64,000 nt of DNA, taken from assembly GCA_964502215.1 (NCBI GenBank), contig CAZCUN010000007.1, positions 2,794 through 66,793 on the forward strand, in the 5' to 3' direction. The notes beneath the pieces were generated by a model that saw only the letters and a program-made list of their open reading frames with translations, had not been told where the DNA came from and did no database searches. The DNA is from an uncultured Rhizobiaceae bacterium. GTDB taxonomy: Bacteria; Pseudomonadota; Alphaproteobacteria; Rhizobiales; Rhizobiaceae. This document shows positions 13,275 to 42,394 of this stretch, one piece after another; position 1 is the stretch's first letter; every line of letters begins with the position of its first letter. Position numbers and translations under genes: made by a program.

Positions 13275-14338
13275 GCGTTAAATACATTCCCGTACAGTGG
13301 AATTCCAACAAGTGGAAATACAACGCAATCATGCTAGCAAGCGTTTTTGCTTATTTGTGGATTTTCCTTTTCATCACACCAGACCTTATGTCAAACGAAG
13401 GTCGGTTAAATGTTCAGGTTCACAATGCAAGAGCCTTTGGATCTTGCGCCTTTCTAATGCTGAGTTTTATTCTTTGTATTGGCCCACTGGCACGATTAGA
13501 TAAACGCTTTTTACCGCTTTTATATAACCGCCGCCATTTTGGTGTGATGACGACTTTTGTAGGCATTACCCACGCTGGTTATATCGTGAATTGGTACTTT
13601 GCTTTTTCCTCCTCCAACAAATATGAAGCACTGCTTTTTGCCAACACAAGTTATGGCCAACTCTCTGGCTTTCCATTTGAAGCATTTGGCATTTTGGCGC
13701 TTTTCTGCCTTTCCATATTAGCAGCCACCAGCCATGATTTTTGGCTCAAGTTTCTCACACCACGCATATGGAAGCGTATTCATTATCTGATTTATGCAGC
13801 CTATATTCTCGTCGTTGCGCATGTCAGTTTTGGTATTTTGCAAGACCAGCAGAACCATACGTTTACAGCAATCTTTATTGTAAGTGCATTGATTGTTGCC
13901 CTCTTGCACTTGCTGGCAGCTTTACACGAGCGCAAACATGGCGATCCCTTCCCAGATACAAATGGCGATTGGATAAAAGCTTGCGAAACCTCCGCCATGC
14001 GCGAAGGCTTTGCCAAGATAATCCATCTTACGAAAAAAGAACGCGTTGCAATTTTTCTGCATGAAGGAAAGCTATCCGCGATCTCAAACGCCTGCGCTCA
14101 CCAAAATGGCCCATTGGGTGAAGGAAAGATTCTAGATTGCCTTGTAACCTGCCCATGGCATGGGTTTCAGTATGATGTCACGAATGGTTCATCACCTGCA
14201 CCATTTACGGAGAAGGTGCCAACCTATAATCTGAAACTTGAAGGCGGGAGTATTTTGGTTGACCGAAGTGCTAATCCACCTGGCACATTTGTAGAGCCAT
14301 TGGCATTTACCCTAGAAGGACAGAATAATGAGCGATGA
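13271..14338 (+). CDS. ferric-reductase-type (YedZ/NOX-like) transmembrane domain fused to a C-terminal Rieske [2Fe-2S] domain
   Basis: About 6 TM segments, with His pairs inside TM helices (IHYLIYAAYILVVAH, 13 residues between the His). C-terminal CAHQNGPL…CPWHGFQY matches the Rieske CxH…CxxH motif. Confidence 0.7.
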   Translation: MSVKYIPVQWNSNKWKYNAIMLASVFAYLWIFLFITPDLMSNEGRLNVQVHNARAFGSCAFLMLSFILCIGPLARLDKRFLPLLYNRRHFGVMTTFVGITHAGYIVNWYFAFSSSNKYEALLFANTSYGQLSGFPFEAFGILALFCLSILAATSHDFWLKFLTPRIWKRIHYLIYAAYILVVAHVSFGILQDQQNHTFTAIFIVSALIVALLHLLAALHERKHGDPFPDTNGDWIKACETSAMREGFAKIIHLTKKERVAIFLHEGKLSAISNACAHQNGPLGEGKILDCLVTCPWHGFQYDVTNGSSPAPFTEKVPTYNLKLEGGSILVDRSANPPGTFVEPLAFTLEGQNNER

Positions 14339-15089
14339 AAAACCCCCCTTCTTTGTTGGTTATTTAGGTATTCCTAAAGGCTTGAAAGGTTTTTTGCTGA
14401 AAGTTTCAGCGCTAACCTTCGCAGGTTTTGCCGCAGGTGCTGTCCTTGCAGGCGCAACTCAAGATGACCCAGGTGAGGCAGGTTTTAGATTTGATTACGG
14501 CAGACAAACCGTAACAGGCATCATTGAAGCAAAGCCCTACCCTCTTCTTTATGTGACTGAGGGTAGCGAACGCATCAAAACTGGCAAGACCATGATGCTA
14601 TCGGGTCAAGGCAAAACAGGTGCTATGAAAAATGTTGCAGCATTAGAGGGTGAAATCATCGAAGCAACTGGCTTTATATTAAAGCGCGGCGAATTAAACA
14701 TGCTCCAGCTCTTAGGTGGAAAGCGTGGTGTAAAACCGCTTTCTAAAGAAGCCCCTATTCCAGCAAGTGAGCAACTAGGACGATGGAAATTACAAGGCGA
14801 AATCTGTGATGGCAAATGCCTAGCAGGCGCAATGCAACCAGGCCGTGGCCTTGCCCATAAAGCATGTGCAAACCTTTGTCTGTTTGGTGACATACCGCCG
14901 GTCTTTGTTTCATCTCAACCCATAGAAGGCGAAGAATACTTTTTAGTGGCAGGAGCAGACGGTGGCAGACTGCCCGAAGAGGCTTACGATTACATCGGGC
15001 AATTTGTAGAAATTGAATCAGACATAGAACGCCGTGGAGATATGATGGTGTTGAAAATCGACCTTGAAAAAATCAGAGCGATCGAATGA
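14328..15089 (+). CDS. membrane-anchored protein with a CxxxC…CxxxC motif, unknown function
   Basis: 253 aa. One N-terminal TM segment and the four-Cys segment CDGKCLAGAMQPGRGLAHKACANLCLFG. Overlaps the upstream gene by 11 nt. Confidence 0.5.
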   Translation: MSDEKPPFFVGYLGIPKGLKGFLLKVSALTFAGFAAGAVLAGATQDDPGEAGFRFDYGRQTVTGIIEAKPYPLLYVTEGSERIKTGKTMMLSGQGKTGAMKNVAALEGEIIEATGFILKRGELNMLQLLGGKRGVKPLSKEAPIPASEQLGRWKLQGEICDGKCLAGAMQPGRGLAHKACANLCLFGDIPPVFVSSQPIEGEEYFLVAGADGGRLPEEAYDYIGQFVEIESDIERRGDMMVLKIDLEKIRAIE

Positions 15090-24684: not shown

Positions 24685-26088
24685 ATGAACAAAGCTCTAA
24701 AAATTGCAGATCTTCAAGAAGGTAATGTATCGCTTGGTAGGTCAAATCTTTCAAATCCTGATCAATTAACTAATCTGGATACAGAAGAAATTCGTTCTAA
24801 AATCAAAGCTGCTCGTCTTGAAAAACTCATGGCGCGGCAACTAGAAAGCGAACTCACCTTCGATTTAGAAGCTGAGCCTGAGTTAGTTATCGAAGCTTCA
24901 GATGAGGAAATCACCCTAGAAACACTTTTTGACGATGTTTCAAACGCTCCTATAAAGCTGGAGATACCAGCATCAAAATCTAAAGGTTACTCTATAGGTA
25001 GCTCAAAACGCATGCGTAACATGCAAACAACCAGGCATTCTTGTGATGAAATGGTTACTCGTATTCGATCTGGCTCTCATATTCTAACGGAATTAAACGA
25101 GCAAACGACAAATCTAGTAAATCAACTCCAGTTCATGGAACAAGAGTTTGCAAACTTTGAAGAAGCTGAAGTAAAAGCTTCAAAACTAGCAAGTGAACAT
25201 AAGCGAATTACAACCGAATATAATGAAGCTCTTAATCTTATTGAAAAACAAAGCCGTCAACTAAATGTTCTCGATCAACAGCGAACTAAAAGCAACGCTG
25301 ATTATGAAAATACAAGAGCAGAACTAGAGCAGCTTCAAATTCGCAATCGTAAAGACATAGATTTATTCGCAGAAGTTCAAATCGTCAATTCGGAACTAGA
25401 GCAAGAAAAGCGTTCGCTCAATAATCAACTGACAGCAAATGAAGCAAGCCTTTCTGAAGCTACGTCAGAACTTCAAACGACAAATAATATGTTGAAGCAA
25501 AAAGATATGGAAGCAGCAAGAGCACTAGCTGAACTCACTTCCACAAAAGAACGCCTTCAAAATGCAGAAACAAGCCTAGCTTTTACAAGCGAGGAACACG
25601 AAACTTTATCTAAGCAATTTACAGAAGCTCAAATTGAATTACAAAGTCTTCAATCGCAAAATGAAGCTGCAAATGACGAACTTGCTTCAACACAAACCAA
25701 CTTGAAGCAAACAACATAAGAGTTAGAAGAGCTAACCGCAGACGCACATGATAAAGACATATCATCTGCAAAACTCACCTCTGACTATGCTTCACTTATC
25801 AAGCAAAACTCTAAAGTCACGAATGATTTAAATAACATTCAGAACAAATATGACGAATTGAATAAATCTGCTCTTGAACAACAAAGTCAGCAATATGCAC
25901 GCATCCATGAGTTGGAAAGTGTCATGCGCGATGTAAAACGTCAGTTAGAATTTAAAACCAAAACCAATGCAGAATTAACAGTTGAGCTTGAAGCAACAAA
26001 CAATTTGTTGGTTCTTCACGAAGAGATGGTATTGTTGGTTCTTCACGAAGAGATGGTAACTGCACTTTCGAAAGAAAATAATAGATAA
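24685..26088 (+). pseudogene. long coiled-coil protein gene interrupted by a single in-frame TAA (25717..25719)
   Basis: Track ORFs 24685..25719 and 25858..26088 share a frame (offset 1173 nt). I translated 25720-25857 by hand and found no other stop. The heptad-rich Q/E/L/N composition continues across the stop. Confidence 0.65.
26005..26058 (+). repeat. perfect 27-bp tandem duplication (2 copies) inside the coiled-coil gene
   Basis: TTGTTGGTTCTTCACGAAGAGATGGTA appears twice (26005-26031 and 26032-26058), encoding LLVLHEEMV twice. Confidence 0.95.
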
Positions 26089-27221: not shown

Positions 27222-27686
27222 ATGAAGAATAATCTTGATGAAATTGATCTAAAAATACTGCGTATTTTGCAAAAAACCGCTGATCTAAGTATTACAGAAA
27301 TTGGCGACAAAGTAGGCCTCAGCCACACCCCTTGCTGGCGTCGTATCAAAAAGATGCAAGAAAGCGGTGTTATTAAATCTCAAGTATGTAATCTAGATTC
27401 TGAAATAATCGGCTTAGATGTTTCAATCTTTGTTTTCGTCAGGTTAGATACGCATTCGGCTCAAGCGCTTCATAAATTTGAAATATCAACAAAATCAGTG
27501 CCCGAAATCATGCAATGTTACACCATGAGTGGAGAGTTTGATTACTTACTAAGGATTGTCGTAGCAACGGTTAGGGATTACGAAAAAACAGTAAAGGGAA
27601 AGTTACTTCAGCTGCCACATGTAGGAATGATGAATTCACATTTTGCACTAAGTGAAATAAAAAATTCATCTGCTTTACCAATTTAG
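27222..27686 (+). CDS. Lrp/AsnC-family transcriptional regulator
   Basis: …LDEIDLKILRILQKTADLSITEIGDKVGLSHTPCWRRIKKM… followed by a RAM domain. Confidence 0.9.
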   Translation: MKNNLDEIDLKILRILQKTADLSITEIGDKVGLSHTPCWRRIKKMQESGVIKSQVCNLDSEIIGLDVSIFVFVRLDTHSAQALHKFEISTKSVPEIMQCYTMSGEFDYLLRIVVATVRDYEKTVKGKLLQLPHVGMMNSHFALSEIKNSSALPI

Positions 27687-27826: not shown

Positions 27827-30800
27827 ATGGGTGAAAACACACCAGCCAGCAAAATCATTGCAGCCAAGGACATTTCGCTCGAAGATAAATATACCGCCAC
27901 CGAAGGCAAAATATTTCTCAATGGTACGCAAGCACTGGTTCGTTTGCCAATCGTTCAAATGCGCCGCGACCGTGAAGCAGGACTTAAAACAGGTGGTTTT
28001 ATTTCAGGCTACCGTGGTTCTCCTATAGGCGCTTATGACTTTGCGCTTCAACAAGCGCAAAAGCATCTTGATAAAGAAGGCATCGTCTTCCAGCCAGGCG
28101 TTAATGAAGACCTAGCCGCAACAGCTGTTTGGGGAACACAGCAAATTGATCTAACACCAAGCGCAAAAGTTGATGGCGTTTCTGCCTATTGGTACGGCAA
28201 GGGCCCAGGCGTTGACCGCTCAGGCGATGTTTTCAAACATGCAAACTCTGCTGGCACATCAAAGATTGGTGGTGTTTTAGCGTTTGCGGGCGATGACCAT
28301 ACTGCAAAGTCTTCCACAGTAGCCCACCAATCAGACCATGCCTTCATGGCCGCAATGATGCCAATGCTATTTCCTTCAAGTGTGCAAGAGTTCGTTGAGC
28401 TAGGCCTGCTTGGTACGGCTATGTCTCGTTACTCAGGCCTTTGGGTAGGTTATAAAGTTATATCAGACACCATCGAAACAACTGGTGTGGTTGATTTGGC
28501 AGGTGAGAAGCAAAAATTTATCATTCCTGAGGAGTTTGCGCTCCCAGAAAATGGTTTAAACCTTCGCTGGCCAGATGGTATTTTAGAACAAGACGAGCGA
28601 CTTTTAGAACATAAAGCCTATGCAGCCCTTGCATTTGCTAAAGCAAATAACGTTGACCAACTTATCTATGACACGAAGAAACCGCGTTTTGGTATTATTG
28701 CATCAGGCAAGGCTTATGAAAACGTGCGTGAAGCACTTCGCCAACTGGATATTGATGAGAAAACTGCCGACAAAATTGGCCTTCGTCTTTACAAAGTACG
28801 CATGCCTTGGCCGTTAGAGCCTGAAGGCATTCGCAAATTTGCAGATGGTCTTGAAGAAGTGCTTGTTATTGAAGAACGTCGTGAGATTATTGAAAACCAA
28901 ATTAAGCAACAATTGTTTAATTGGAAAGCCAGCGTACGCCCGCGCATCGTTGGTAAATTCGACCACGAAGACAATCACATTCTAAAATTAAACGAAGAAA
29001 TGACTGCTGGAGTGGCGGTTCGTGCCATTGCAAGCAGACTGTTAATGCTAGATATGCCAGAGGGCATTGCGGGTCGTGTCAAACAAAAACTTGCTTATTA
29101 TGAAGAACGCGCAAGCATTAAGAAAAACCATGAAACACCTGTAACCCGCACAGCACACTTTTGCTCAGGTTGTCCACACAACACCTCAACAAAAGTACCA
29201 GAAGGTAGCCGCGCACTTGCTGGTATCGGCTGTCACTTCATGTCTGTATGGATGGATCGCGAAACATCAACCTTTAGCCACATGGGTGGCGAAGGCGCAA
29301 GCTGGTCAGGGCTTAATCATTTCACAGATGAAGACCATATCTTTGCAAACCTTGGGGATGGCACATATTTTCACTCAGGCTATATGGCAGTAAGAAATGC
29401 TGTTGCATCAAAAGCTAATATTACCTACAAAATTTTATTCAATGATGCCGTTGCCATGACGGGCGGTCAAACCCACGATGGCCCTCTTGATCCACCGACG
29501 ATCTCCAAACAATTAAAAGCAGAAGGCGTAAAGGAAATCTGGCTAGTCTCAGAAGACCCACAACGCTATTCCAAATCTGATTTTGCATCTGGTATAACAA
29601 TCCGCCACCGCGAACACCTTGATGAAGTGCAAAAGCACTTACGCACTGTAAAAGGTTGCACAGCGATTATCTACGACCAAACATGCGCAGCAGAACTCCG
29701 CCGCCGTCGCAAGCGCGGTAAAGCCGTAGACCCAGACAAACGCGCCTTTATTAATCCATTGGTATGTGAAGGTTGTGGCGATTGTTCAGTGCAGTCCAAT
29801 TGTGTTTCCATCGAACCCCTAGAAACAGACTTCGGTCGCAAGCGCAAAATCAACCAATCATCTTGTAATAAAGATTTTTCATGCGTTGAAGGCTTCTGCC
29901 CATCGTTTGTAACGGTTAAAAGCGGTTCACTTAAAAAACCAAAGGCAGCTGAACTTGACGCTTCAAACCTGCCCAAACCAAAGACACCAAAACTCGATGA
30001 TGTTTACAACATTGCGATCACAGGTGTTGGTGGCACAGGTGTGCTTACAATTGGTGCTATTCTTGGCATGGCAGCTCATGTGCAAGGCAAAGCAGCCTTG
30101 ATGCTAGATATGGCAGGTCTTGCACAAAAAGGCGGCGCAGTGCTCTCCCATGTTCGCCTTGCCCCAACACCAGATTTAGTAACCGCACCGCAAATTGTAA
30201 CAGGTGAAGCAGACTTGCTTTTAGCCGCTGATACAGTCGTTGCCTCAGCTCAAAGTTCAATTGCACTGTTAAGTTCAGAAAACACCAATGCTATTCTCAA
30301 CACGCATTTGAACCCAGTTTCAAATTTCATTTTTGACCGTGATTATGATTTCCGTGAGGACGGTGTTGTCGATACGATACGTCAACACGTTCGCAAGGAT
30401 ATGGCTCAAGTCAACTTTAACAAACTGGCAGAAACCGTTTGTGGTGATGCGATTGCCACCAACATCATGATGATTGGCTATGCATGTCAAATGGGCATGA
30501 TCCCACTGCCACCAGAAGCAATTGAACGGGCAATCGAATTAAACGCAGTTGCTGTTGCAGCCAATAAACGCGCCTTCAACTGGGGTCGTAAATTTGCCCA
30601 TGATCCAAAAGAAATTGAGGTCATATTAGAGGAAGCAAATCCAAAGGCAAAAGAGCCTGATACATTAGAAGAAATCATCAACAAACGCGCTGAATTCTTG
30701 AAAGATTATCAAGATGAAGACTACGCACAAAGCTACCGTGATTTTGTTTCTAAGGTTGAGACTGCGGAAGAAAAACTATCTAAATCCAAAGACTTAACCA

Positions 30801-31342
30801 ATTCTGTGGCGCGCAATCTATTTAAGCTTATGTCTTACAAAGACGAGTACGAAGTCGCGCGTCTTTACACTAATGGTGAGTTTGAAAAACAGATTGCCGA
30901 TACTTTCGATGGCGATTTTCAGATTAATTATCACCTTGCGCCGCCGTTGATTGGCTTTGGTAAAAAACCAAATGGTCGCCCACGCAAGCGCGTCTTTGGC
31001 TCATGGATGATGAAAGCTTTCAAACTGATTGCAAAGTACAAACACCTGCGCGGCACAAAGATGGATATTTTTGGCTATTCAGCAGAGCGCAAAATGGAGC
31101 GCAAGTTAATTGAGGACTACAAGCAAACCCTCACAGAGTTGCTAGGAAAATTAACTGAGAGCAATCGCCATTTTGCAAGTGCCATTGCACGCGTACCAGA
31201 TGACATTCGTGGTTTTGGTCCTGTAAAAGAAGAAGCATTTAAAAAAGCGCAAGCAAAGCAAAAAGACTTACTAGCTCAGTTTGAAAAGCCCGATGCACAA
31301 AACGAAAACGACAAGCTAACTAAAGCCGAACCTGCTGAATAA
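27827..31342 (+). CDS. indolepyruvate ferredoxin oxidoreductase family protein (fused alpha/beta)
   Basis: 1171 aa. TPP motif …GDGTYFHSG…, ferredoxin-like CEGCGDC…C cluster, and N-terminal …KYTATEGKIFLNGTQALVRLP…. Confidence 0.85.
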   Translation: MGENTPASKIIAAKDISLEDKYTATEGKIFLNGTQALVRLPIVQMRRDREAGLKTGGFISGYRGSPIGAYDFALQQAQKHLDKEGIVFQPGVNEDLAATAVWGTQQIDLTPSAKVDGVSAYWYGKGPGVDRSGDVFKHANSAGTSKIGGVLAFAGDDHTAKSSTVAHQSDHAFMAAMMPMLFPSSVQEFVELGLLGTAMSRYSGLWVGYKVISDTIETTGVVDLAGEKQKFIIPEEFALPENGLNLRWPDGILEQDERLLEHKAYAALAFAKANNVDQLIYDTKKPRFGIIASGKAYENVREALRQLDIDEKTADKIGLRLYKVRMPWPLEPEGIRKFADGLEEVLVIEERREIIENQIKQQLFNWKASVRPRIVGKFDHEDNHILKLNEEMTAGVAVRAIASRLLMLDMPEGIAGRVKQKLAYYEERASIKKNHETPVTRTAHFCSGCPHNTSTKVPEGSRALAGIGCHFMSVWMDRETSTFSHMGGEGASWSGLNHFTDEDHIFANLGDGTYFHSGYMAVRNAVASKANITYKILFNDAVAMTGGQTHDGPLDPPTISKQLKAEGVKEIWLVSEDPQRYSKSDFASGITIRHREHLDEVQKHLRTVKGCTAIIYDQTCAAELRRRRKRGKAVDPDKRAFINPLVCEGCGDCSVQSNCVSIEPLETDFGRKRKINQSSCNKDFSCVEGFCPSFVTVKSGSLKKPKAAELDASNLPKPKTPKLDDVYNIAITGVGGTGVLTIGAILGMAAHVQGKAALMLDMAGLAQKGGAVLSHVRLAPTPDLVTAPQIVTGEADLLLAADTVVASAQSSIALLSSENTNAILNTHLNPVSNFIFDRDYDFREDGVVDTIRQHVRKDMAQVNFNKLAETVCGDAIATNIMMIGYACQMGMIPLPPEAIERAIELNAVAVAANKRAFNWGRKFAHDPKEIEVILEEANPKAKEPDTLEEIINKRAEFLKDYQDEDYAQSYRDFVSKVETAEEKLSKSKDLTNSVARNLFKLMSYKDEYEVARLYTNGEFEKQIADTFDGDFQINYHLAPPLIGFGKKPNGRPRKRVFGSWMMKAFKLIAKYKHLRGTKMDIFGYSAERKMERKLIEDYKQTLTELLGKLTESNRHFASAIARVPDDIRGFGPVKEEAFKKAQAKQKDLLAQFEKPDAQNENDKLTKAEPAE

Positions 31343-31375: not shown

Positions 31376-31407
31376 AAAACAAAAAACCCAGCACCAAAGT
31401 GCTGGGT
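31376..31407 (-). terminator. rho-independent terminator of the sugar-dehydrogenase gene
   Basis: On the minus strand: ACCCAGCAC-TTTG-GTGCTGGGT followed by TTTTTTGTTTT. Confidence 0.75.
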
Positions 31408-31464: not shown

Positions 31465-32814
31465 TTATGGTGTCCAGTAGTTAAACTGTAGTTTCGCAAT
31501 CTCTTCATCAAACAGACCGCGAAGATCAACAATTGGTGCACCGCGACCAACAACAGAAGCTAGTTTGAAAAGATCAATATCTTCAACAAAGCAATCATGT
31601 TTTGCGGTTACAACAACAGCGTCGTACTGACATTCTTCTTCTAGTGTTTCGATGAACTTAGCACCGCGACCACCTTCAAAGTGACCATCATCAGCAATTG
31701 GATCATATGAGAATACATCTGCACCACGTGTCCAAAGGCTGTCCATTACTGCAAAAGCTTTTGAATTACGGATGTCTGGGCAATTATCTTTAAAAGCACG
31801 ACCAAGAACAAGAACACGCTTACCTTGTAAGTTATGCGCTTCAGGATCAAGCATCTCATGCAATTTGTCAGAAACAAAATGCGCAGTACGTTCATTTACG
31901 GTACGAGCAGATGCAACCATATCCATTGCAAGACCATGACCACGGCCAGCATTAAGAAGGTAAAACGGATCAACTGAAATACAATGTCCGCCTACAAGAC
32001 CTGGGAAATACTTATGGAAATTCCACTTTGAACCTGCTGCTGCAACAACATCTGTTACTTTGATATCCATTGCATCAAATAATTGCATCATCTCATTAAT
32101 AAGAGCGATGTTTACATCACGTTGTGTATTTTCTAGAATTTTAGCAGCTTCTGCAACTTTAATAGATGCAGCCTTAAACAAACCTGCTTTAACAACACGA
32201 GAGTAAAGCTCTGCAAGATAATCTGTAACTTCAGGTGAAGAACCAGAAACAATTTTTGAAATATCGCCAACTCTACGGGCATGATCACCTGGTGAAACAC
32301 GTTCTGGAGAGTAACCTACATAAAAGTCTACACCCTCACGCATACCAGATTCTGCTTCAAGAATAGGAACACACTTGTTTTCAGTTGTGCCTGGGTCAAC
32401 AGTTGATTCATATACAACAATACAACCACGCTTCATATTTTGACCAATTGTCTTACTAGCTGCAAGCACTGGACGATAGTCAGGCTTGTGACCTTGCATG
32501 ACAGGTGTCGGCACACAAACCATCATCACATCAGCTTCATTAAGAACGTTTACATCACAAGAAAACTCCATGTTTTTCTTAGATAGATCTTCGCCCGTAG
32601 TCATTTCTGTTGAATCTTCGCCATTACGAAGTGCTTCAATCTTAGCTTCATCAACATCAAAGCCGATAGTGCGTGCGTCATCTGCAAAGCCTACCATTAA
32701 AGGAAGACCAACATAGCCAAGGCCTAATACTGCAACGATAGATTCTTTTGGATTTGGAAGTGCTACTGTTTCAAGAACTTCAAAGCGATTTGTTTGCGCA
32801 ACTGTTGTGCTCAT
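31465..32814 (-). CDS. nucleotide-sugar 6-dehydrogenase, TviB/WecC/Cap5O (UDP-N-acetylhexosamine) subfamily
   Basis: Rossmann motif VLGLGYVGLPL and catalytic segment LVGGHCISVDPFY, which matches the N-acetylhexosamine branch rather than the Ugd pattern GGSCFPKD. Confidence 0.8.
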   Translation of the reverse strand: MSTTVAQTNRFEVLETVALPNPKESIVAVLGLGYVGLPLMVGFADDARTIGFDVDEAKIEALRNGEDSTEMTTGEDLSKKNMEFSCDVNVLNEADVMMVCVPTPVMQGHKPDYRPVLAASKTIGQNMKRGCIVVYESTVDPGTTENKCVPILEAESGMREGVDFYVGYSPERVSPGDHARRVGDISKIVSGSSPEVTDYLAELYSRVVKAGLFKAASIKVAEAAKILENTQRDVNIALINEMMQLFDAMDIKVTDVVAAAGSKWNFHKYFPGLVGGHCISVDPFYLLNAGRGHGLAMDMVASARTVNERTAHFVSDKLHEMLDPEAHNLQGKRVLVLGRAFKDNCPDIRNSKAFAVMDSLWTRGADVFSYDPIADDGHFEGGRGAKFIETLEEECQYDAVVVTAKHDCFVEDIDLFKLASVVGRGAPIVDLRGLFDEEIAKLQFNYWTP

Positions 32815-33139
32815 TATATATACCCCTGTTTTATACGTCTTCTTATGAGACGCTTTTTATTATTATCTTCGCTTTCTAATGAAGCGTTTATCAACATGTC
32901 TTTGCACGTCTTGAAACCATTTATATCGGACATGTAAAAATATTTAGTTACGGGAAGTGGTTAAAAAAAACTTATATTTTCAGTCGCGTTTTAAGTTTGA
33001 AATAAACCTTTCGTTTACCCTGTTTTCAACAAGCCCAATAGTAACCAACCGTTAACTTTGATTCTTAAGCGCTGTTTTATACCCCCCATATATATTGGTC
33101 GATGGGACGCTAAAATTCGGGGCAAAACCGATTTTAGTC

Positions 33140-34387
33140 ATGCATATAAAAAAGAGAAGACGCATGATTAACTTAAACGGCATAGAATGGCTTTTTGCCA
33201 TACTTGTGCTTATCATATTCACAAACAGGTATCTGTTTGGAAGCATTCTTCGTATGTTGGATAAACGTACGAAGCCTGGTTTCAGCAAAGAACCTGACGT
33301 GTGGCCAACTGTAACGATTGTTACGCCTGTATTTAATGAAGGCGCAACAGTTATTCAGACAGCGGATAGCTTTGCCAAACTGAATTACCCAAAAGATAAA
33401 TTGCAAGTCATCTTTGTAGACGATGTTTCTACAGACGATACTTATGAGCACCTTTTAACAGCCCAACGCAACCACCCATGGATGCGCGTAGATCGTAACC
33501 CGCATAATATGGGTAAACGCCTTGGCATTAAACGTGCCGTTCTAACTGTTGAAACCGATTTAGTGATGTCTGTAGATTCAGATGTAATTGTTGAGCGTGA
33601 CGCAATGCGCAACATGGTTAAACACATGCATACAACAGGTGTTGATGCAGTTGGTGGTTGTGTATTCGTATCAAATGCAGACGAAAACTGGCTTACCCGA
33701 ATGCAGGCTGTTAAGTACTGGGTTGGGTATATGTTTTTGAAAAATATAGAGAATACCTTTGACCATGTAATGTGTTTATCTGGCTGTTTGACCATTTATA
33801 AACGTGAAGCACTGGTAGCAGTGGACGAAGATGTTGCAGACCGTCGTTTCCTTGGTGATGAAGTGAAATATGGTGAAGACCGTTACTTAACACGCAAGCT
33901 TGTCGAAAAAGGTTACAAGACACGTCTAACGTTTGATGCGCAGTGTTATACAAAAGCACCTGCTACTATGGCTAATTATATTTCACAGCAATTGCGCTGG
34001 CGTCGTTCAAACATGATCGACTTGATTACAGCTATTCCGCACATCAATAAGTTTAATACATACGTCTGTATTCATTACATTGCGATGGGCATGTTGCTTC
34101 TATTTTACCCAATGGTTCTATTGGTTGAATTCATGCGCCTTGGCTTCATTATTCCTATGATGTTGCACGGCCTACTAGCAGCTTGTTTCGGCATTGCTTA
34201 CGAACTGAACAAACATAAAGTGCCTGAAATGGCGCGTACAGACGGCATTTGGTTCATGGCGATGGCGCTTATTTTCCCTGTTGTCTACTTAACACTTAAC
34301 CCGTTGGCATTAGCAACACTTGGTACAACTTCTTGGGAAACCCGTGGTGGTGCAAAGAAAAAGATTAAAGCGGTGACAGCAAAATGA
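33140..34387 (+). CDS. processive family-2 glycosyltransferase of the hyaluronan-synthase / NodC / chitin-synthase type
   Basis: FVDDVSTDD, SVDSDV, CLSGCLTIYKR, GEDRYLT and QQLRWRRS motifs. One N-terminal TM segment and several C-terminal ones. The start is uncertain: TTG 33095, ATG 33140 or ATG 33164. Confidence 0.85.
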   Translation: MHIKKRRRMINLNGIEWLFAILVLIIFTNRYLFGSILRMLDKRTKPGFSKEPDVWPTVTIVTPVFNEGATVIQTADSFAKLNYPKDKLQVIFVDDVSTDDTYEHLLTAQRNHPWMRVDRNPHNMGKRLGIKRAVLTVETDLVMSVDSDVIVERDAMRNMVKHMHTTGVDAVGGCVFVSNADENWLTRMQAVKYWVGYMFLKNIENTFDHVMCLSGCLTIYKREALVAVDEDVADRRFLGDEVKYGEDRYLTRKLVEKGYKTRLTFDAQCYTKAPATMANYISQQLRWRRSNMIDLITAIPHINKFNTYVCIHYIAMGMLLLFYPMVLLVEFMRLGFIIPMMLHGLLAACFGIAYELNKHKVPEMARTDGIWFMAMALIFPVVYLTLNPLALATLGTTSWETRGGAKKKIKAVTAK

Positions 34388-36030
34388 TGCCTACATTGCT
34401 GCATACGGGTGAAGCACCAGTAAAGGGAAGTTTACGTTCCCGTATTATGGTCATGGGACCTGCTGCGCATGGTATTGCAGCGGCACTCGTGCGGATGCAA
34501 AGTAATTCTGAAATACATTCTGCAAACACAGCCGCAGAAGCGATAGAAATTCTTAAAACAGGTGATTTTGATCACTTGTTGATTGATAACCGAGCTGATG
34601 GTGCAATGAGTTTAACAATCCCTGCCCTTTCGCGCTTGGATTCTATTAAAAACATTACTGTTCTTGCTGGCGCTCAGTCGAGTCCTTCTATTTCTGCGCT
34701 TCCAGGTGTCGCGTCTGTCATTACAGCGCCTTACAATCCTGTAAAGATTGCAAATTCACTTGATATAGAAATTCGTGATAGCAGAAGCTCTAATCAGCCA
34801 GAGCAGAATAAAGGCCGCCGCGCAGAAGATAAATCTGTAGCTAAAGAAATCCACGGGGAGGTGGAAGATACCAGTGCAGACAAACATGAAGAGGACGAGC
34901 GTCCCCTTGTTTTTAGAATGCTGTCTGCACTGGTTCATTTTATTCCAGGCTTAACGCCCCTACTTTCAATGCTATATAAGAATTTGGCTCTGACCGTTCT
35001 TTCAGCATTATTCATTGCCTTTGTTAGTTACGGCATCATGATTGCTTATTTCTTGACGTCTGGTGACTGGTCTAGCCCATTGCAACTTCAGCGTGGCCAT
35101 GAACTTGTTATTAAAGCAGAACGAGACCTGGGTGAGCTTAAAGTAAAGCGCAATCTTGTAACGCAACAACTTGCAGATGCTGGCAACAAAGCCTCTCGCG
35201 GTCGTTCATCACTTGAGCGTGCTGAAACGCTTGCACAAATCACATATGTTACAATTAATCAGGAAACTGAAAACCGCATAGATCGCCAAGCTCAAGTCAA
35301 AAACGAGATTGGTGCTCTTTACAGCGTACTTAATTCATACGGTTCAGCAAAAAGCCGCCGTGCAGAGCGTAACCGCCTACAAAATGAGTTTAACCGTCGC
35401 GTTATAACCCGTAATCTTTTCCAGCGTTCAATGTTGAACCTTTCTGAGGTCGAAGAAAATATTGTGAACCTGCGCGAGAAAATTTCTACGAAGAAAACAG
35501 AGCTTAAGCTAAACAATCAATCAATTGCATATTTGGCTCAATTAAAAGACCAGCTGTCATCTGATTTGAATAAAATTGCCCTATTCGGCGGTAAAGCAGA
35601 ATTTGTACCCATCGCAAACCAAGTGATTGAAGTGCAACAAGTCCGCACATCAGGCAAAGCTGATATTAGCGAATTTAAAGCAACTGAAAAGACACTGAAC
35701 AACAGTCTTTCTGTATTGGAAAACTCAATTTCAGAACTTCAAAAAACGCCTATGATTAGAGCGCTTGAAGAGCCTGTAAACGTGCTTTTCGTTCCTTATG
35801 ACAATTTAGATGCTTATACAAAAGACGAGCATCTTTATACCTGCGCCATCGCCATTATCTGGTGCAGCGAAGTGGGCACTGTAGGTAGCCCAATCGGCGG
35901 CGAAATCGTAACTACTCATCCATTTTTTGGCAAACCAATCCGTGGCCAGTTCGTTGAAGCGAACCTGACTGAAAAATCAGCAGCACAGAAAGAGATTATC
36001 CATGTTGGACGTCCTCCACTATTCTTCTAG
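34384..36030 (+). CDS. predicted co-polymerase/adaptor: CheY-like pseudo-receiver domain, acidic linker, TM segments, coiled coil and HlyD/MFP-like C-terminal domain
   Basis: ATGA overlap with the GT2 gene. Residues about 20-130 follow the alternating beta/alpha receiver pattern (RIMVMG…AAEAIEILKTGDFDHLLID…ITVLAG…VITAPYNP). Hydrophobic segments lie at about 175-235. A long heptad-rich region is followed by a beta-rich C-terminus. Confidence 0.55.
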   Translation: MMPTLLHTGEAPVKGSLRSRIMVMGPAAHGIAAALVRMQSNSEIHSANTAAEAIEILKTGDFDHLLIDNRADGAMSLTIPALSRLDSIKNITVLAGAQSSPSISALPGVASVITAPYNPVKIANSLDIEIRDSRSSNQPEQNKGRRAEDKSVAKEIHGEVEDTSADKHEEDERPLVFRMLSALVHFIPGLTPLLSMLYKNLALTVLSALFIAFVSYGIMIAYFLTSGDWSSPLQLQRGHELVIKAERDLGELKVKRNLVTQQLADAGNKASRGRSSLERAETLAQITYVTINQETENRIDRQAQVKNEIGALYSVLNSYGSAKSRRAERNRLQNEFNRRVITRNLFQRSMLNLSEVEENIVNLREKISTKKTELKLNNQSIAYLAQLKDQLSSDLNKIALFGGKAEFVPIANQVIEVQQVRTSGKADISEFKATEKTLNNSLSVLENSISELQKTPMIRALEEPVNVLFVPYDNLDAYTKDEHLYTCAIAIIWCSEVGTVGSPIGGEIVTTHPFFGKPIRGQFVEANLTEKSAAQKEIIHVGRPPLFF

Positions 36031-37348
36031 AAAAGCAAAGCCTATCGCATTAGCTTTGACAGCAGTCATGCTTTTAAGCGGCTGTTCTGCATCAACGTTC
36101 GATAACAAAGAGTTTTTCGAACAAGATAACCGTGCGTTTTTTGAAAAGCTGAAAAAAGAGCCAAAACACGAACGTGAAGATGTGACGGATCAAACACCAG
36201 AACAGGATAAATACGAAACGCACGTTAAGAAGGTTGATCCTGATGTTGATACGAAGGTAAATGTTGTAACACGCACACCAGCAATCGATTCTGTAAAAAC
36301 GTTCAGCATTAAGCCAAAAAAATTGTCACGCGTGAATATTAGTGACAGCAGTGCAGCTTGTCGTTACTTACGCAAATCCGCAGATGCAGAAGCCTTTATT
36401 GTGGGTTCCCCTACTCTATCTGCTTCATCTGACGATGATGGTTCTGGCTCTGTAAACCTTGGCATGAACTTACTTGATTTTCATAAGGCAGATTTAATCC
36501 GCGCATCAGGTGACGCAAAATGTCGTCTGCATGAAGCATCAAAGAAAATTGAAGCAACGCTTGGACTTGGCGTAGAAGCAAACCGTTTTGCACGTGCAGA
36601 TGCTAAAGCAAAATACATTCGCCAAAACCTTGGCTTTCTTGAAAGCATAGACAGACGCGCAAAACAACTCTTAAACCAAGGTTCTTTAACCGTTCAAGAT
36701 ACCAACCTTGTTAGCCTTCGTATTGATGAGCTAAAAGCTGAAATGCAGGCTTCTCAAGCCGAGGCTGATCAACGTCGTGGCCTACCTTCACTAGACATCA
36801 ACCAGGTTAGAAGCCGCCATGGTGCATTGGTTGAAGCGACAAATGATCTACAAAACATCGAGCGTGAGATCAGAACAAATGATGCGTTAGAGTTGAGTGT
36901 AAACACAGGCTACCGCTATAATGAAGTGTTTAACGACGCCCTACAACGCAACGATAACGACGGTGCTTTTGCAAGCGTCAGTGTTGGTGTACGCTTAGGT
37001 GCATTATCTGCACAACGTCGCCGTGTAGAAGAAGAAGCAGCAGGCGCACGTCTTGATGCATTATTTGAAGAAAACACAGGCACAATTTGGAAAAGTGGAT
37101 TTTCAGATCGCGCAATCTCAAGAATGGTATCAGATTTGAAAAAATCTGACGCAGAATTAACAGCGGCCCTTACAAAGGCAAATGATACCATTAATCGTCT
37201 TGGTGCAGCAGATCGTCCTGAAATTATGCGTGCACGCCTACAAACAAAACTTGAAAAAGTACGTGTTGGCGCAAACCGCGCAGCGGTTAGAGCTTCCATC
37301 AAGCAGCTTGAAGATAATCAAAGAAAAATTAAAGCACTTTCAAAGTAA
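36002..37348 (+). CDS. lipoprotein, TolC/NodT-like outer-membrane-factor candidate
   Basis: Lipobox …AVMLLSGC|S. Long helical segments flank beta-strand pairs (…LELSVNTGYRYNE…GAFASVSVGVRLG…), as in OMF proteins. 29-nt overlap with the upstream gene. Confidence 0.5.
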   Translation: MLDVLHYSSRKAKPIALALTAVMLLSGCSASTFDNKEFFEQDNRAFFEKLKKEPKHEREDVTDQTPEQDKYETHVKKVDPDVDTKVNVVTRTPAIDSVKTFSIKPKKLSRVNISDSSAACRYLRKSADAEAFIVGSPTLSASSDDDGSGSVNLGMNLLDFHKADLIRASGDAKCRLHEASKKIEATLGLGVEANRFARADAKAKYIRQNLGFLESIDRRAKQLLNQGSLTVQDTNLVSLRIDELKAEMQASQAEADQRRGLPSLDINQVRSRHGALVEATNDLQNIEREIRTNDALELSVNTGYRYNEVFNDALQRNDNDGAFASVSVGVRLGALSAQRRRVEEEAAGARLDALFEENTGTIWKSGFSDRAISRMVSDLKKSDAELTAALTKANDTINRLGAADRPEIMRARLQTKLEKVRVGANRAAVRASIKQLEDNQRKIKALSK

Positions 37349-37362
37349 GAAAACTCAGATAT

Positions 37363-37393
37363 GATTGCCCTTGTATAATATTTAAGGGCAATC
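37363..37393 (+). other. 10-bp perfect-stem hairpin ending at the start codon of the next gene
   Basis: GATTGCCCTT-(11 nt)-AAGGGCAATC immediately followed by the ATG at 37394. The only purine-rich SD-like element (AAGGG) lies in the 3' arm. Confidence 0.5.
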
Positions 37394-37750
37394 ATGCGAA
37401 TAAAAGAAATTATCACAACTGGCATTCTATTAAGTTCTGTTTCTACCTGCTTTGCAGATGAGCAAAAATTAACAGGCGCAGAAATTGAAGCCCTCCTCCC
37501 AACAATAAAAGCAAGTGGCCCTAGCTATACGCAAACCTTTAGTAAAAAAGGTTTGACGACTTACGTTTTTGACGGAAGACCAAGCGAGGGACGCTGGAGC
37601 GTACAAAGCGATCAATACTGCTCGACTTGGCCGCCAAATGATATTGTAGAGTGTTACGATGTTTTAGTGGACAAAACACAACAAACCATCACATGGATTG
37701 GTGCGCGAAATGCCATATCCAAAGGCACTTACAAATTTCTTAAAAACTAG
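37394..37750 (+). CDS. small exported protein, unknown function
   Basis: 118 aa with signal peptide …LLSSVSTCFA|DE. Confidence 0.5.
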   Translation: MRIKEIITTGILLSSVSTCFADEQKLTGAEIEALLPTIKASGPSYTQTFSKKGLTTYVFDGRPSEGRWSVQSDQYCSTWPPNDIVECYDVLVDKTQQTITWIGARNAISKGTYKFLKN

Positions 37751-40720: not shown

Positions 40721-41593
40721 ATGTCAAATATTCTTACCAAGGATCAGAAAGAAGCTTTCTGGCGTGACGGCGTTTTAACGGTTGAAGATGCGGTTACTGA
40801 TGAGCAATTATCTGGATTACGAACTGCCTTTTCTCAATGGATAGAAGAAAGCCGTTCGCACCAAGACGACTACGGCGAAACACTTGATGGCCGCCCTCGA
40901 TTTGACTTAGAACCTGGCCATTCAACAAAGATGCCTGCGCTGCGTCGCGTCCAATCTCCAGAGGAGGTTTCAGACCATTATGCAGATGTAATGCGGAATT
41001 CAAAAATGGCAGATATTTGCGCAGAATTACTTGGCACTGCTATTCGGTTTCACCATGGCAAGGTCAACTCAAAACAGCCAGGCGCTGCAACCAAAATAAA
41101 ATTCCATCAAGATTTTCTATTTCAACCCATGACCAATGACGACTTAATAACATGCCTCTTGTTTGTTGATGAAGTAACACTAGAAAACGGCCCCCTCGAA
41201 GTTGTCCCAGGAACGCACAAAGGCGCATTATACTCACACTGGCAGAACGGTGTTTTCACAGGCGCTATATCAGATGATGTTTTAAAAGAACACGAAGATA
41301 ATATCGTTAGATGCACAGGCAAGCCAGGTTCAGTTTGTTTAATGCATTCAAGCTTACTGCACGGATCAGCGCCAAATTTATCTAACAACCCGCGAACCTT
41401 ATATATTGTAACTTATTATGCAGAAGATGCGATAGAACTAAGCCCAAACCATCTACCAAGCACTCTCACGCATGAACTTGTCAGAGGTGAAGCATCTGGT
41501 CGAGTACGTTGCAGTTCTTATGAAATGCAAATACCAGAAGTTCCAAAAGATACATCGTTCTTTGCCCAACAAGCTTCTTCAGATAAGAACTAA
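40721..41593 (+). CDS. phytanoyl-CoA dioxygenase (PhyH) family Fe(II)/2-oxoglutarate oxygenase
   Basis: …FWRDGVLTVEDAV…, HQD (HxD) and …HGSAPN… facial-triad pattern. Confidence 0.75.
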   Translation: MSNILTKDQKEAFWRDGVLTVEDAVTDEQLSGLRTAFSQWIEESRSHQDDYGETLDGRPRFDLEPGHSTKMPALRRVQSPEEVSDHYADVMRNSKMADICAELLGTAIRFHHGKVNSKQPGAATKIKFHQDFLFQPMTNDDLITCLLFVDEVTLENGPLEVVPGTHKGALYSHWQNGVFTGAISDDVLKEHEDNIVRCTGKPGSVCLMHSSLLHGSAPNLSNNPRTLYIVTYYAEDAIELSPNHLPSTLTHELVRGEASGRVRCSSYEMQIPEVPKDTSFFAQQASSDKN

Positions 41594-41620
41594 ACATTGA
41601 TTTTGGATGGATGTTAAACG

Positions 41621-42394
41621 ATGAACAATATGGCTAATCACACAAAGATCAAAAAATTAGACTTCACCACCGACAGTGGCTTTGGAGAGCGTGCCCGCAT
41701 TGGCTTATTAGTTTTAGAATCTGATCAAACCGTTGAGACTGAACTTAAACTTCTAACAGATATTCCAGGCGTCTCAATTTATCATTCTCGCCTTGCAAAT
41801 GACCTGATCGTCACCCCTGAAACATTAGCAAATATGGAAAAAGAACTCCCAATAGCAGCAGGCCTATTGCCAAAATACATGGCGCTTTCTGCACTTGGCT
41901 ATGGCTGCACATCAGCCTCAACTATTATTGGGGAAGACCGCGTTCAACAAATTCTCAATCAAGCACACCCTAACGTACCAACTTCCAACCCTTTAACCGC
42001 GGCCAAAGCAGCCCTTAAAGCCTTAAATGTAAAGCGTCTTGCATTACTCACTCCCTATACCCCTGAAGTAACACAGGCGATGCAATCAAAGTTTATCGAA
42101 GCTGGCATTGAGATTGCAATTGTTGGTTCATTTTATGAAGAAAGCGATCTTGTGGTTGGTAAAATCTCATCGCAATCAATTTTAGATGCAGCGATTGCGA
42201 TTGGCGCAAACAAAGACTGCGACGGTGTTTTCATTTCCTGCACCAGCTTACGTGCTGCAGCAATCATTGAAAAAGCAGAAGACGCGATAGGTAAACCTGT
42301 AACCGCAAGCAATCATGCACTTGCGTGGCATTTACTAAGACTAGCTGGCATCGAAGATAAACAAAAAGGCTACGGCAAATTATTTGAACTTTAA
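41621..42394 (+). CDS. Asp/Glu/hydantoin-racemase-superfamily protein (maleate isomerase / arylmalonate decarboxylase-like)
   Basis: 257 aa. …RIGLLVLESDQTVE… and two Cys-containing loops (…GYGCTSAS…, …FISCTSLR…). Confidence 0.65.
   Translation: MNNMANHTKIKKLDFTTDSGFGERARIGLLVLESDQTVETELKLLTDIPGVSIYHSRLANDLIVTPETLANMEKELPIAAGLLPKYMALSALGYGCTSASTIIGEDRVQQILNQAHPNVPTSNPLTAAKAALKALNVKRLALLTPYTPEVTQAMQSKFIEAGIEIAIVGSFYEESDLVVGKISSQSILDAAIAIGANKDCDGVFISCTSLRAAAIIEKAEDAIGKPVTASNHALAWHLLRLAGIEDKQKGYGKLFEL

Follow-up and report, generated by a model that had tools for sequence, protein, structure and literature searches.

The window analysed here, i.e. a 64,000-nucleotide (nt) stretch of DNA from an uncultured Rhizobiaceae bacterium (assembly GCA_964502215.1, contig CAZCUN010000007.1, positions 2,794-66,793), carries on its plus strand three overlapping genes, which encode a processive synthase of glycosyltransferase family 2 (GT2; gene 1, 33140..34387), a predicted adaptor reminiscent of the membrane-fusion proteins (MFP; gene 2, 34384..36030), and a lipoprotein with the predicted fold of the TolC channels (gene 3, 36002..37348). 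Together, these genes probably specify a compact, synthase-dependent polysaccharide secretion machine built like a tripartite efflux pump, in which the glycosyltransferase would take the place of the pump. This reading builds on the gene order, the overlaps at the two junctions, the fold predictions for the two partner proteins, the co-conservation of the three genes, and the lack of any adjacent pump gene.

Operon layout, synthase and sugar dehydrogenase

The frame of gene 1, counted here as 415 amino acids (aa), opens at the TTG of position 33095, and its true start could be the ATG at 33164 (MINLNG...), giving a protein of 407 aa that fits better since the homologs measure 403-410 aa. Gene 2 (548 aa) begins inside the stop codon of gene 1, the two sharing an ATGA start/stop overlap at 34384..34387 (plus strand) that can be read directly from the sequence (...gcaaaATGAtgcct...), and gene 3 (448 aa) begins at the ATG of position 36002 in the +1 frame, thereby overlapping gene 2 by 29 nt (36002..36030, plus strand), so that the original prediction of these two overlaps proved exact. 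Among 35 related loci, the junction between genes 1 and 2 is a 4-nt or 1-nt overlap in nearly all cases, and the junction between genes 2 and 3 is an overlap of 29 nt (or of 26 or 32 nt) in most of them. Since both overlaps are conserved across these loci, the arrangement of the triad goes beyond chance. Besides, in all loci examined the module lacks a neighbouring gene for an ATP-binding cassette (ABC), resistance-nodulation-division (RND) or major facilitator superfamily (MFS) transporter, which leaves the synthase as the only inner-membrane partner available to the adaptor and the TolC-like channel.

The assignment of gene 1 to the class of the hyaluronan synthases (HAS), NodC and the chitin synthases (CHS), as originally claimed, was borne out by several lines of sequence evidence. 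Its translation carries the DDVSTDD, SVDSDV, GEDRYLT and QQLRWRRS segments, corresponding to the D, DxD, (G)EDR and QxxRW motifs, together with a C-terminal SWETRG, and the catalytic motifs are likewise present in the synthase homolog of the distant locus L040. In Pfam, gene 1 passes the thresholds of Glycos_transf_2 (84.1 bits, cutoff 23.3) and Glyco_trans_2_3, as well as those of the two models with which the class had been proposed to be checked, Glyco_tranf_2_3 (81.4 bits, cutoff 27) and Chitin_synth_2 (66.5 bits, cutoff 27), and its closest PDB sequences are hyaluronan synthases, with HAS1 at an E-value of 1.4e-25 and further entries at about 3e-14. The best NCBIfam match is NodC (TIGR04242), which aligns end to end with 173.3 bits against a cutoff of 550; the PgaC/IcaA model of the poly-N-acetylglucosamine (PNAG) synthase (TIGR03937) gives 105 bits, below its cutoff of 422, and the cellulose synthase models just 33-44 bits. 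Judged from these data, gene 1 belongs to the HAS/NodC/chitin synthase class and yet is the equivalog of no named enzyme. Its hydropathy profile shows hydrophobic segments at residues 8-37, 308-354 and 368-395, i.e. one N-terminal segment and a C-terminal cluster, and the protein is predicted to be membrane-embedded, with transmembrane helices flanking the catalytic domain, a size and layout resembling those of the streptococcal HasA and of NodC.

Divergently from the operon, the minus strand encodes a predicted TviB/WbpA-like UDP-N-acetylhexosamine (HexNAc) 6-dehydrogenase (31465..32814), which the original prediction had missed, as it had the receiver-like domain of gene 2 described below. 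All three Pfam UDPG_MGDP_dh domains are present in this protein, which scores 363 bits with the TviB model of NCBIfam (cutoff 592) versus 134 bits with that of the UDP-glucose dehydrogenase TuaD, and whose best PDB matches are the dehydrogenases producing UDP-N-acetylmannosaminuronic acid and N-acetylgalactosaminuronic acid, and Cap5O. Nearly every alphaproteobacterial locus has this gene next to the triad, as do L040 and a Paraburkholderia locus (L048), and it is absent beside the triad in locus L046; in most lineages, it is the fourth conserved component of the module. Pairs made of a CHS-like GT2 and a UDP-N-acetylglucosamine (UDP-GlcNAc) 6-dehydrogenase are known to recur in algal viruses and fungi, where a joint action of the two enzymes has been proposed. 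With regard to the product of the module, we infer an acidic polymer containing the uronic acid of GlcNAc (GlcNAcA), either as a homopolymer or in alternation with GlcNAc. As for L046 (469-4555), a high-GC metagenomic contig, its triad lacks the receiver domain and stands beside genes for a CmlA-type beta-hydroxylase, a thioesterase, a phosphopantetheinyl transferase and an adenosine 5'-phosphosulfate (APS) kinase; as no sugar dehydrogenase accompanies it, that lineage may have a different polymer or modify it differently, possibly by sulfation.

The two partner proteins

Neither partner is recognised by the family databases: gene 2 has no match to any Pfam or NCBIfam family, gene 3 has none besides a weak match to a lipoprotein signal region, and no informative names for these proteins or their relatives were found in public sources. 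Genes 2 and 3 define two sizeable families absent from Pfam and NCBIfam.

The clearer case is that of gene 3. Its AlphaFold model, built from 39 sequences (predicted local distance difference test, pLDDT, 79; predicted template modelling score, pTM, 0.70), consists of two repeats of a helix, a beta-hairpin and a long helical hairpin, with four strands in total. When this model was compared with the PDB by Foldseek, TolC-family channels accounted for all 39 matches at E<=1e-3, with E-values from 7e-10 to 9e-5, a probability of 1.00 and 384-476 alignment columns, these structures including TolC, SilC, CusC, OprM, OprN, VceC, CmeC and MtrE; no Wza- or KpsD-type structure was found among the top matches. 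The L-S-G-C lipobox lies at residues 25-28 (36074..36085, plus strand), with a hydrophobic segment at residues 15-33 and a serine at position +2, and its G27 and C28 are conserved in at least 90% of the relatives. Beta-hairpin 1 (residues 138-156, 36413..36469, plus strand) is the most conserved segment of the protein (0.86), and beta-hairpin 2 (residues 296-330, 36887..36991, plus strand) displays alternating hydrophobic and polar residues, including Tyr304 and Tyr306, the four strands being amphipathic according to both model and translation. The lipobox and the pattern of helix, beta-hairpin and helix typical of outer-membrane factors (OMF), which had been noticed in the sequence beforehand, are thereby confirmed. 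An internal comparison of the N-terminal and C-terminal halves by hhalign also sets hairpin 1 on hairpin 2 over 139 collinear columns, this match being not significant (E 0.008, probability 5%; reversed control E 0.26). Taken together, these data allow gene 3 to be predicted with high confidence as a TolC-fold lipoprotein, without being a sequence-detectable member of the OEP family of outer-membrane factors.

The AlphaFold model of gene 2 (pLDDT 80, pTM 0.46) displays, in this order, an alpha/beta domain, a disordered linker, a transmembrane helix, a short strand, long helices and a beta-domain. Its top Foldseek match in the PDB is the adaptor EmrA (E 1.7e-5, 335 columns, TM-scores of 0.15-0.22), and MacA comes further down the list. 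The alpha/beta domain (residues 20-125, 34441..34758, plus strand) resembles the CheY-like receiver (REC) domains, which it matches by Foldseek with a target-normalised TM-score of about 0.65; in the same line, the profile of the gene 2 family retrieves the REC domains of PorX (E 2e-5) and HupR (E 2.7e-4) from the PDB sequences, and the Pfam model Response_reg is weakly matched by 16 of the 44 family members. While D68, at the position of the phospho-acceptor, is invariant, the acidic pair after beta1 is replaced by GPAA, the Thr/Ser after beta4 by A95, and the Lys-Pro after beta5 by A115-P116. Lacking these three elements, the domain, a genuine but diverged receiver, is probably a non-phosphorylated pseudo-receiver. 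It is absent from most of the wider gene 2 family, and Pfam scans detected no PilZ domain in gene 2 or its relatives.

Downstream of the pseudo-receiver, the single transmembrane helix (residues 190-225, 34951..35058, plus strand) combines a helix in the model with a mean conservation of 0.82 and invariant residues such as Y198, K199, L206, F210 and G217. The hydropathy profile shows only one hydrophobic zone, at 179-227, and the relatives devoid of the receiver start about 15 residues before this helix, with Arg and Lys residues on its N-terminal side. Gene 2 is hence predicted to possess one N-terminal transmembrane anchor, its N-terminus being in the cytoplasm and the large part behind the anchor in the periplasm, an arrangement typical of the HlyD/EmrA subtype of adaptors. 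A juxtamembrane strand (229-235, conservation 0.88) precedes the helical coiled-coil region (residues 240-453, 35101..35742, plus strand), where the model places long helices at 240-318, 322-392 and 405-453, of 79, 16+50 and 49 residues, respectively, and where G320, at a predicted turn, is nearly invariant. The protein ends with a highly conserved beta-domain (residues 454-548, 35743..36027, plus strand), drawn at 465-541 in the model, with invariant C487 and C494 and the terminal motif HVGRPPLFF, which is kept in homologs from Myxococcota, Deltaproteobacteria and Paraburkholderia. Conservation peaks (0.81-0.88) in the juxtamembrane strand, the transmembrane helix and the beta-domain, the last at 0.81, compared to 0.54-0.61 in the coiled coil. 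Thus, of the layout first proposed for gene 2, the coiled coil followed by a beta-rich C-terminus stands, whereas the several transmembrane segments are reduced to one by both model and hydropathy. EmrA is an adaptor in which a long hairpin works with a pump devoid of a periplasmic domain. The layout of gene 2 is HlyD/EmrA-like, and its assignment as an MFP, which is moderately supported, is one of fold rather than of family membership.

Some members of the gene 2 family (L037, 8001-10418; P0049 and P0217; 818-823 aa) bear an extra N-terminal region of about 440 aa. This region has no Pfam domain, other long variants (505-668 aa) are likewise unannotated, and a Pfam scan of 10 long members detected no domain in the N-terminal extensions, which consequently bring no extra support to the idea of a regulated adaptor. 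Finally, a reading of the two partners as a polysaccharide co-polymerase and an outer-membrane polysaccharide export protein (PCP/OPX, Wzz/Wza-type) was rejected, as gene 2 has one transmembrane helix instead of two and gene 3 matches only TolC-family structures, none of the Wza or KpsD type being among its top matches.

Distribution, proposed mechanism and alternatives

The triad, overlapping at its junctions in the same way, was found in about 35 loci from metagenome-assembled genomes (MAGs) of Hyphomicrobiales with differing flanks, the triad and the dehydrogenase gene staying together while the flanking genes change. Within the GTDB species set, all genome matches are MAGs, mostly of Hyphomicrobiales, the hosts in this order including the Rhizobiaceae group, Nitratireductor, Salaquimonas, Aestuariivirga, Aurantimonadaceae and Phyllobacteriaceae; two matches from Myxococcota/Deltaproteobacteria cover gene 2 from the transmembrane helix to the C-terminus only. 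The synthase evolves most slowly, with 63-96% identity in the alphaproteobacterial loci and 44% in L040, compared to identities going down to 24-30% for genes 2 and 3. Owing to this divergence, a word-indexed protein search went no further than some 50 clusters each for genes 2 and 3. With the synthase as query, 922 matches were obtained, the best 120 of which all have at least 65% identity, and the module was present in the three synthase relatives picked at random (3/3). An exhaustive profile search raised the adaptor family to 735 clusters at 50% identity, 543 of them at E<=1e-10, its members being mostly of 350-380 aa and devoid of the receiver domain. Receiver-less triads occur in distant lineages (L039, L040, L046 and L047), and a representative of this kind lies between a GT2 gene, which it overlaps by 4 nt, and a gene-3-like open reading frame (ORF). 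A search for related loci with a single distant protein retrieved two of them. In the cultured Paraburkholderia sp. PGU19 (replicon NZ_AP023182.1, about 1,228-1,243 kb), the adaptor, a protein probably related to gene 3 (hhalign E 1.7e-4, 273 columns), the dehydrogenase and a GT2 are encoded in a different order, just after a gene for an EAL-domain protein. The survey of gene neighbourhoods that the original prediction had called for thus established the co-conservation of the triad.

Two observations made in these loci deserve mention. Genes for the turnover of cyclic di-GMP (c-di-GMP) adjoin the module in three otherwise different loci: L043 (339-2372) and L044 (565-2643) encode a HAMP-GGDEF-EAL protein, with Tad/TadE-like pilus genes between it and the dehydrogenase, and the Paraburkholderia locus L048 (5422-6741) an EAL protein. 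This proximity is a suggestive but circumstantial hint at a control of biofilm formation or adhesion. In a 3.09-Mb contig of a Rhizobiaceae MAG (L003/L016, 9583-10856), the homolog of gene 3 appears as two separately called ORFs of 178 and 239 aa, which may reflect a frameshift or a pseudogene, and a canonical type I secretion set with OEP, ABC and AprE-type proteins is encoded just downstream of it.

With regard to the mechanism, the three proteins would form a physical complex whose contacts, stoichiometry, polymer, direction of transport and regulation can be envisaged as follows. The dehydrogenase would oxidise UDP-GlcNAc, or a close HexNAc, to the corresponding uronic acid, and the GT2 would polymerise this donor, alone or alternating with UDP-GlcNAc, thereby threading the growing chain across the inner membrane. 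Gene 2 would attach to the synthase through its transmembrane helix and its membrane-proximal beta-domain and would bridge the periplasm up to gene 3 with its long coiled coil, much like EmrA and HlyD in systems whose pumps lack periplasmic domains. The gene 3 lipoprotein would trimerise into a TolC-like barrel and tunnel carrying the polymer through the periplasm and the outer membrane. The cytoplasmic pseudo-receiver of gene 2 would add a regulatory input specific to the lineage, comparable to that of the PilZ domain in Alg44, and the overlapping start and stop codons would keep the three subunits co-translated. More broadly, we give an even chance to the view that the module represents a widespread, unrecognised class of machines, in which a HAS-like glycosyltransferase acts as the engine of a TolC-type conduit, served by two highly diverged or convergent protein families, producing a new acidic, GlcNAcA-containing chitin-like or hyaluronan-like polymer, and gated by a pseudo-receiver in Hyphomicrobiales.

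A series of observations nevertheless weighs against the tripartite machine, and the MFP assignment of gene 2 is its weak link. Apart from EmrA and MacA, the Foldseek neighbours of gene 2 are generic coiled-coil proteins (SMC, EnvC) or match the receiver only. The Pfam models of the HlyD family match neither gene 2, nor its 44 close relatives (E<=1), nor 91 diverse relatives (E<=0.1), hhalign of the gene 2 family against the AprE-type MFP of locus L003 gave nothing, and the 91-sequence profile gave nothing significant among the PDB sequences, EmrA reaching just an E-value of 0.19. Of all these sequence comparisons, the REC domain alone gave a real signal. Likewise, a regular-expression scan of gene 2 for the RLS motif (R-x3-L-x6-S) gave no occurrence, this motif being the one by which the tip of adaptor hairpins binds TolC (Lee et al. 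2012, cited in PMC13438883). The gene 2 model, with its pTM of 0.46, has three long helical segments instead of a clean two-helix hairpin, and one small beta-domain versus the lipoyl and beta-barrel domains of classical adaptors. As to gene 3, the OEP model of Pfam is matched neither by it nor by any of its 39 relatives at E<=1, nothing was obtained by hhalign against the genuine OEP protein of L003 or with the profile against the PDB sequences, and beta-hairpin 1 is short, with strands of 6 and 8 residues. No glycoside hydrolase or lyase is present with the module, such an enzyme accompanying most synthase-dependent systems. All instances but that of Paraburkholderia sp. PGU19 come from uncultured MAGs and, finally, gene 1 has the size of NodC. 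The checks proposed for the two partners had a divided outcome: structure prediction delivered an EmrA-like layout with EmrA as top structural match for gene 2, and the TolC fold for gene 3, whereas the profile searches with HlyD and OEP models failed. As neither of these sequence families is matched, "MFP-like" and "OMF-like" are to be understood as statements about the fold.

In the light of these points, the most serious alternative, which we consider unlikely on balance, is that the three genes act jointly on a polysaccharide without forming a continuous duct. Gene 2 would then be a co-subunit or activator of the synthase, like Alg44 or BcsB, using its coiled coil for oligomerisation or for the control of chain length, and gene 3 would be a free-standing exit in the outer membrane, reached by the polymer after crossing the periplasm. 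The strongest conservation of gene 2 indeed lies on the side of the synthase, in the transmembrane helix and the membrane-proximal domain, and not in the coiled coil; the protein has neither the sequence signature of an MFP nor the RLS motif, its TM-score with EmrA is low, and Alg44 offers a precedent of a co-subunit combining a regulatory domain, a transmembrane helix and an MFP-like part. However, the predicted structure of gene 3 has the full helical tunnel of the TolC type, of about 100 Å, and in known systems it is the docking of adaptor hairpins that opens such a tunnel. Besides, the helices of 70-80 residues in gene 2 exceed the needs of oligomerisation alone, and the close coupling of genes 2 and 3 in translation is a conserved trait, all of which weigh against this alternative.

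Considerably less probable is a synthase that makes short oligosaccharides or lipo-oligosaccharides, possibly containing uronic acid, which would be exported as a signal or a surface glycan. NodC makes short oligomers, and gene 1, being of NodC size with about four hydrophobic segments and having NodC as its best, end-to-end NCBIfam match, leaves an oligosaccharide product conceivable. The NodT family of channel lipoproteins is moreover named from nod loci, the hosts are Hyphomicrobiales including the Rhizobiaceae group, and some authors have speculated that bacterial CHS enzymes secrete oligosaccharides. On the other hand, the NodC score is far under the equivalog cutoff (173 vs 550), no nodA-, nodB- or nodIJ-like gene or ABC exporter stands beside the module in any locus, a cytoplasmic oligomer would have no route to the adaptor without a transporter, and the module also occurs in Myxococcota and Paraburkholderia. 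As to the view that genes 2 and 3 are unrelated to glycan export, being remnants or parts of another efflux or type I secretion system, or structural envelope proteins that just happen to be next to a glycosyltransferase, it can appeal to the fact that neither protein has an assignable family and is, in our estimation, highly improbable: the triad with its conserved overlaps persists even where gene 2 has diverged to about 20-30% identity, and it does so in Alphaproteobacteria, Betaproteobacteria, Deltaproteobacteria and Myxococcota, with varied flanks and no pump gene. This co-conservation brings the view close to refutation.

Neighbouring features and comparison with known systems

The divergent intergenic region between the dehydrogenase and synthase genes (32815..33139), which would contain their promoters, gave no Rfam match and no convincing sigma-70 consensus; more precisely, an Rfam scan of the whole window and of this region yielded nothing credible, and the promoter candidates were no better than those in shuffled sequence. 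A terminator-like hairpin at 31386..31407 (minus strand), with a 9-bp stem comprising 6 GC pairs followed by TTTTTGTTTT, closes the transcription unit of the dehydrogenase. Inside the three genes of the triad, the terminator scan gave five short candidates with stems of 5-8 bp, about as many as expected from shuffled sequence, and none of them is regarded as functional. A perfect inverted repeat of 10 bp (GATTGCCCTT...AAGGGCAATC, 37363..37393, plus strand) lies just 3' of the stop codon of gene 3 and is a possible operon-end hairpin, which the scan passed over because its loop measures 11 nt and no T-run follows. The ATG of a 118-aa ORF (37394-37750) comes directly after this repeat; it has no family match, shows 61% identity to its counterpart in L004 and is absent in the other related loci. 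As it is conserved in the closest relatives only, it was rejected as a part of the module.

One further protein, P0366 (980 aa), which belongs to the same 90% cluster, is an exact fusion of genes 2 and 3 that arises from the loss of 22 nt within the 29-nt overlap (...IIHVG then QAKPIAL...; cf. window 35990-36035). It originates from a 78.6-kb JGI contig, seemingly of the same population as the window, and could be either an assembly artefact or a natural variant joining adaptor and channel in one frame.

Upstream of the dehydrogenase, the window encodes a fused 1171-aa protein of the indolepyruvate-ferredoxin-oxidoreductase family (27827-31342), the synteny being kept among closer relatives only; a 154-aa ORF (27222-27686) adjoins it in the position where, in L003, an AsnC-type regulator precedes the same oxidoreductase. 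Two sizeable ORFs, 14328-15089 (253 aa) and 24685-25719 (344 aa), gave no Pfam match at E<=1e-4 and lie amid ordinary metabolic genes. Finally, region 40721-42394 encodes a dioxygenase of the PhyH family, weakly ectoine-hydroxylase-like, beside an EutA-like protein of the Asp/Glu-racemase family (197 bits, cutoff 318), followed by genes for a peptidase M20 and a Cys/Met enzyme dependent on pyridoxal phosphate; it may be a catabolic cluster for compatible solutes, unrelated to the export module.

Coming to the known systems, the original prediction held that synthase-dependent polymers are exported through proteins with tetratricopeptide repeats (TPR) plus porins, a statement that applies to alginate, cellulose, PNAG and Pel and is incomplete in view of two routes put forward that use TolC. 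In cyanobacteria, a tripartite secretion of cellulose by XcsA, XcsB and TolC has been proposed (Maeda et al. 2018, as described in PMC12430437, PMC8892547), where a GT2 synthase, a HlyD-like adaptor and a TolC-type channel replace BcsB and BcsC and form an efflux-pump-like duct for the polymer, as suggested here. This system relies on an enzyme of the cellulose synthase class with a PilZ domain, on a recognisable HlyD adaptor and on a general TolC encoded elsewhere, whereas the present module combines a HAS/NodC-class synthase with two sequence-orphan partners in three translationally coupled genes. According to a review, the XcsAB-TolC model lacks validation and its genes are not in one operon, a missing linkage which the review regards as an open problem. 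In Sinorhizobium meliloti, a member of the same bacterial order as the host of the window, the mixed-linkage beta-glucan system BgsAB-TolC also associates a GT2 synthase with an MFP, and the TolC channel is genetically required, since deletion of tolC abolishes glucan production (PMC13438883, 2026). There, in contrast, the glucan synthase BgsA binds c-di-GMP through its C-terminus, a HlyD-like domain is found in BgsB, the TolC is an unlinked housekeeping one, and no sugar dehydrogenase is involved. In this route as in that of XcsAB, the synthase resembles the cellulose synthases and the adaptor is a recognisable HlyD protein. In the present module, the synthase and adaptor genes are adjacent, as would be expected of such a tripartite system, and the presence of the channel gene in the operon supports just indirectly a dependence of polymer production on the channel; a cellulose-class enzyme under PilZ/c-di-GMP control is not found, and any regulation would act through the pseudo-receiver.

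Several other systems resemble the module in part. In the alginate system Alg8-Alg44-AlgK-AlgE, Alg44 associates a regulatory domain, one transmembrane helix and an MFP-like periplasmic domain with a GT2 partner, which is the layout of gene 2. Unlike gene 2, Alg44 carries a PilZ domain to which c-di-GMP binds and no long hairpin, and alginate leaves the cell via a TPR protein and the AlgE porin; the putative regulatory domain of gene 2 is a pseudo-receiver, present in one sub-lineage only. EmrAB-TolC and HlyBD-TolC share with the module an inner-membrane part without a large periplasmic domain, an N-anchored adaptor with long helices and a TolC-fold trimer, the latter being a prediction in the present case, but their inner-membrane part is an MFS or ABC transporter instead of a glycosyltransferase, and the partners described here have neither a HlyD or OEP match nor the RLS motif. 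In streptococci, the hasAB operon encodes a HAS synthase and a UDP-sugar dehydrogenase. As in this operon and in the pairs of chloroviruses, phaeoviruses and fungi, a synthase of the HAS/CHS class is genetically paired with the donor-making UDP-sugar 6-dehydrogenase; in these systems, however, the product need not pass an outer membrane, genes for an adaptor or a channel are lacking, and HasB oxidises UDP-glucose whereas the dehydrogenase of the window groups with the HexNAc-specific class. As for NodC, NodIJ and NodT, the likeness resides in a NodC-class GT2 occurring in Hyphomicrobiales together with a TolC-fold lipoprotein, and the difference in the NodC score below threshold, the lack of nodA, nodB and nodIJ, and a gene 3 outside the OEP/NodT sequence family. 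A 2016 survey noted that some horizontally acquired bacterial chs genes lie beside "porin or efflux" genes, which were not analysed there.

A search of open-access papers and bioRxiv retrieved no account of a HAS/NodC-class synthase that has its own adaptor and channel encoded in the same operon. The originally claimed novelty was therefore overstated as a concept, since conduits made of synthase, MFP and TolC had already been proposed for XcsAB-TolC and BgsAB-TolC, and survives in the narrow, operon-encoded HAS/NodC form. In other words, the principle is already known, and what is new is the synthase class, the two orphan partner families, the operon coupling and the probable GlcNAcA chemistry. 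Hundreds of lineages share the conserved module, which is also found in at least one cultured strain and which suggests that marine and soil bacteria make an acidic, as yet uncharacterised polymer of amino sugars. While the genetics of the XcsAB and BgsAB routes are hard to interpret because TolC is pleiotropic, housekeeping and encoded elsewhere, the dedicated and coupled adaptor and channel, the lack of a competing pump and the availability of one cultured strain make the tripartite model cleanly testable here. The module is thus proposed to be the first operon-encoded case of a pump-like polysaccharide route that has otherwise been put forward for systems relying on a general TolC.

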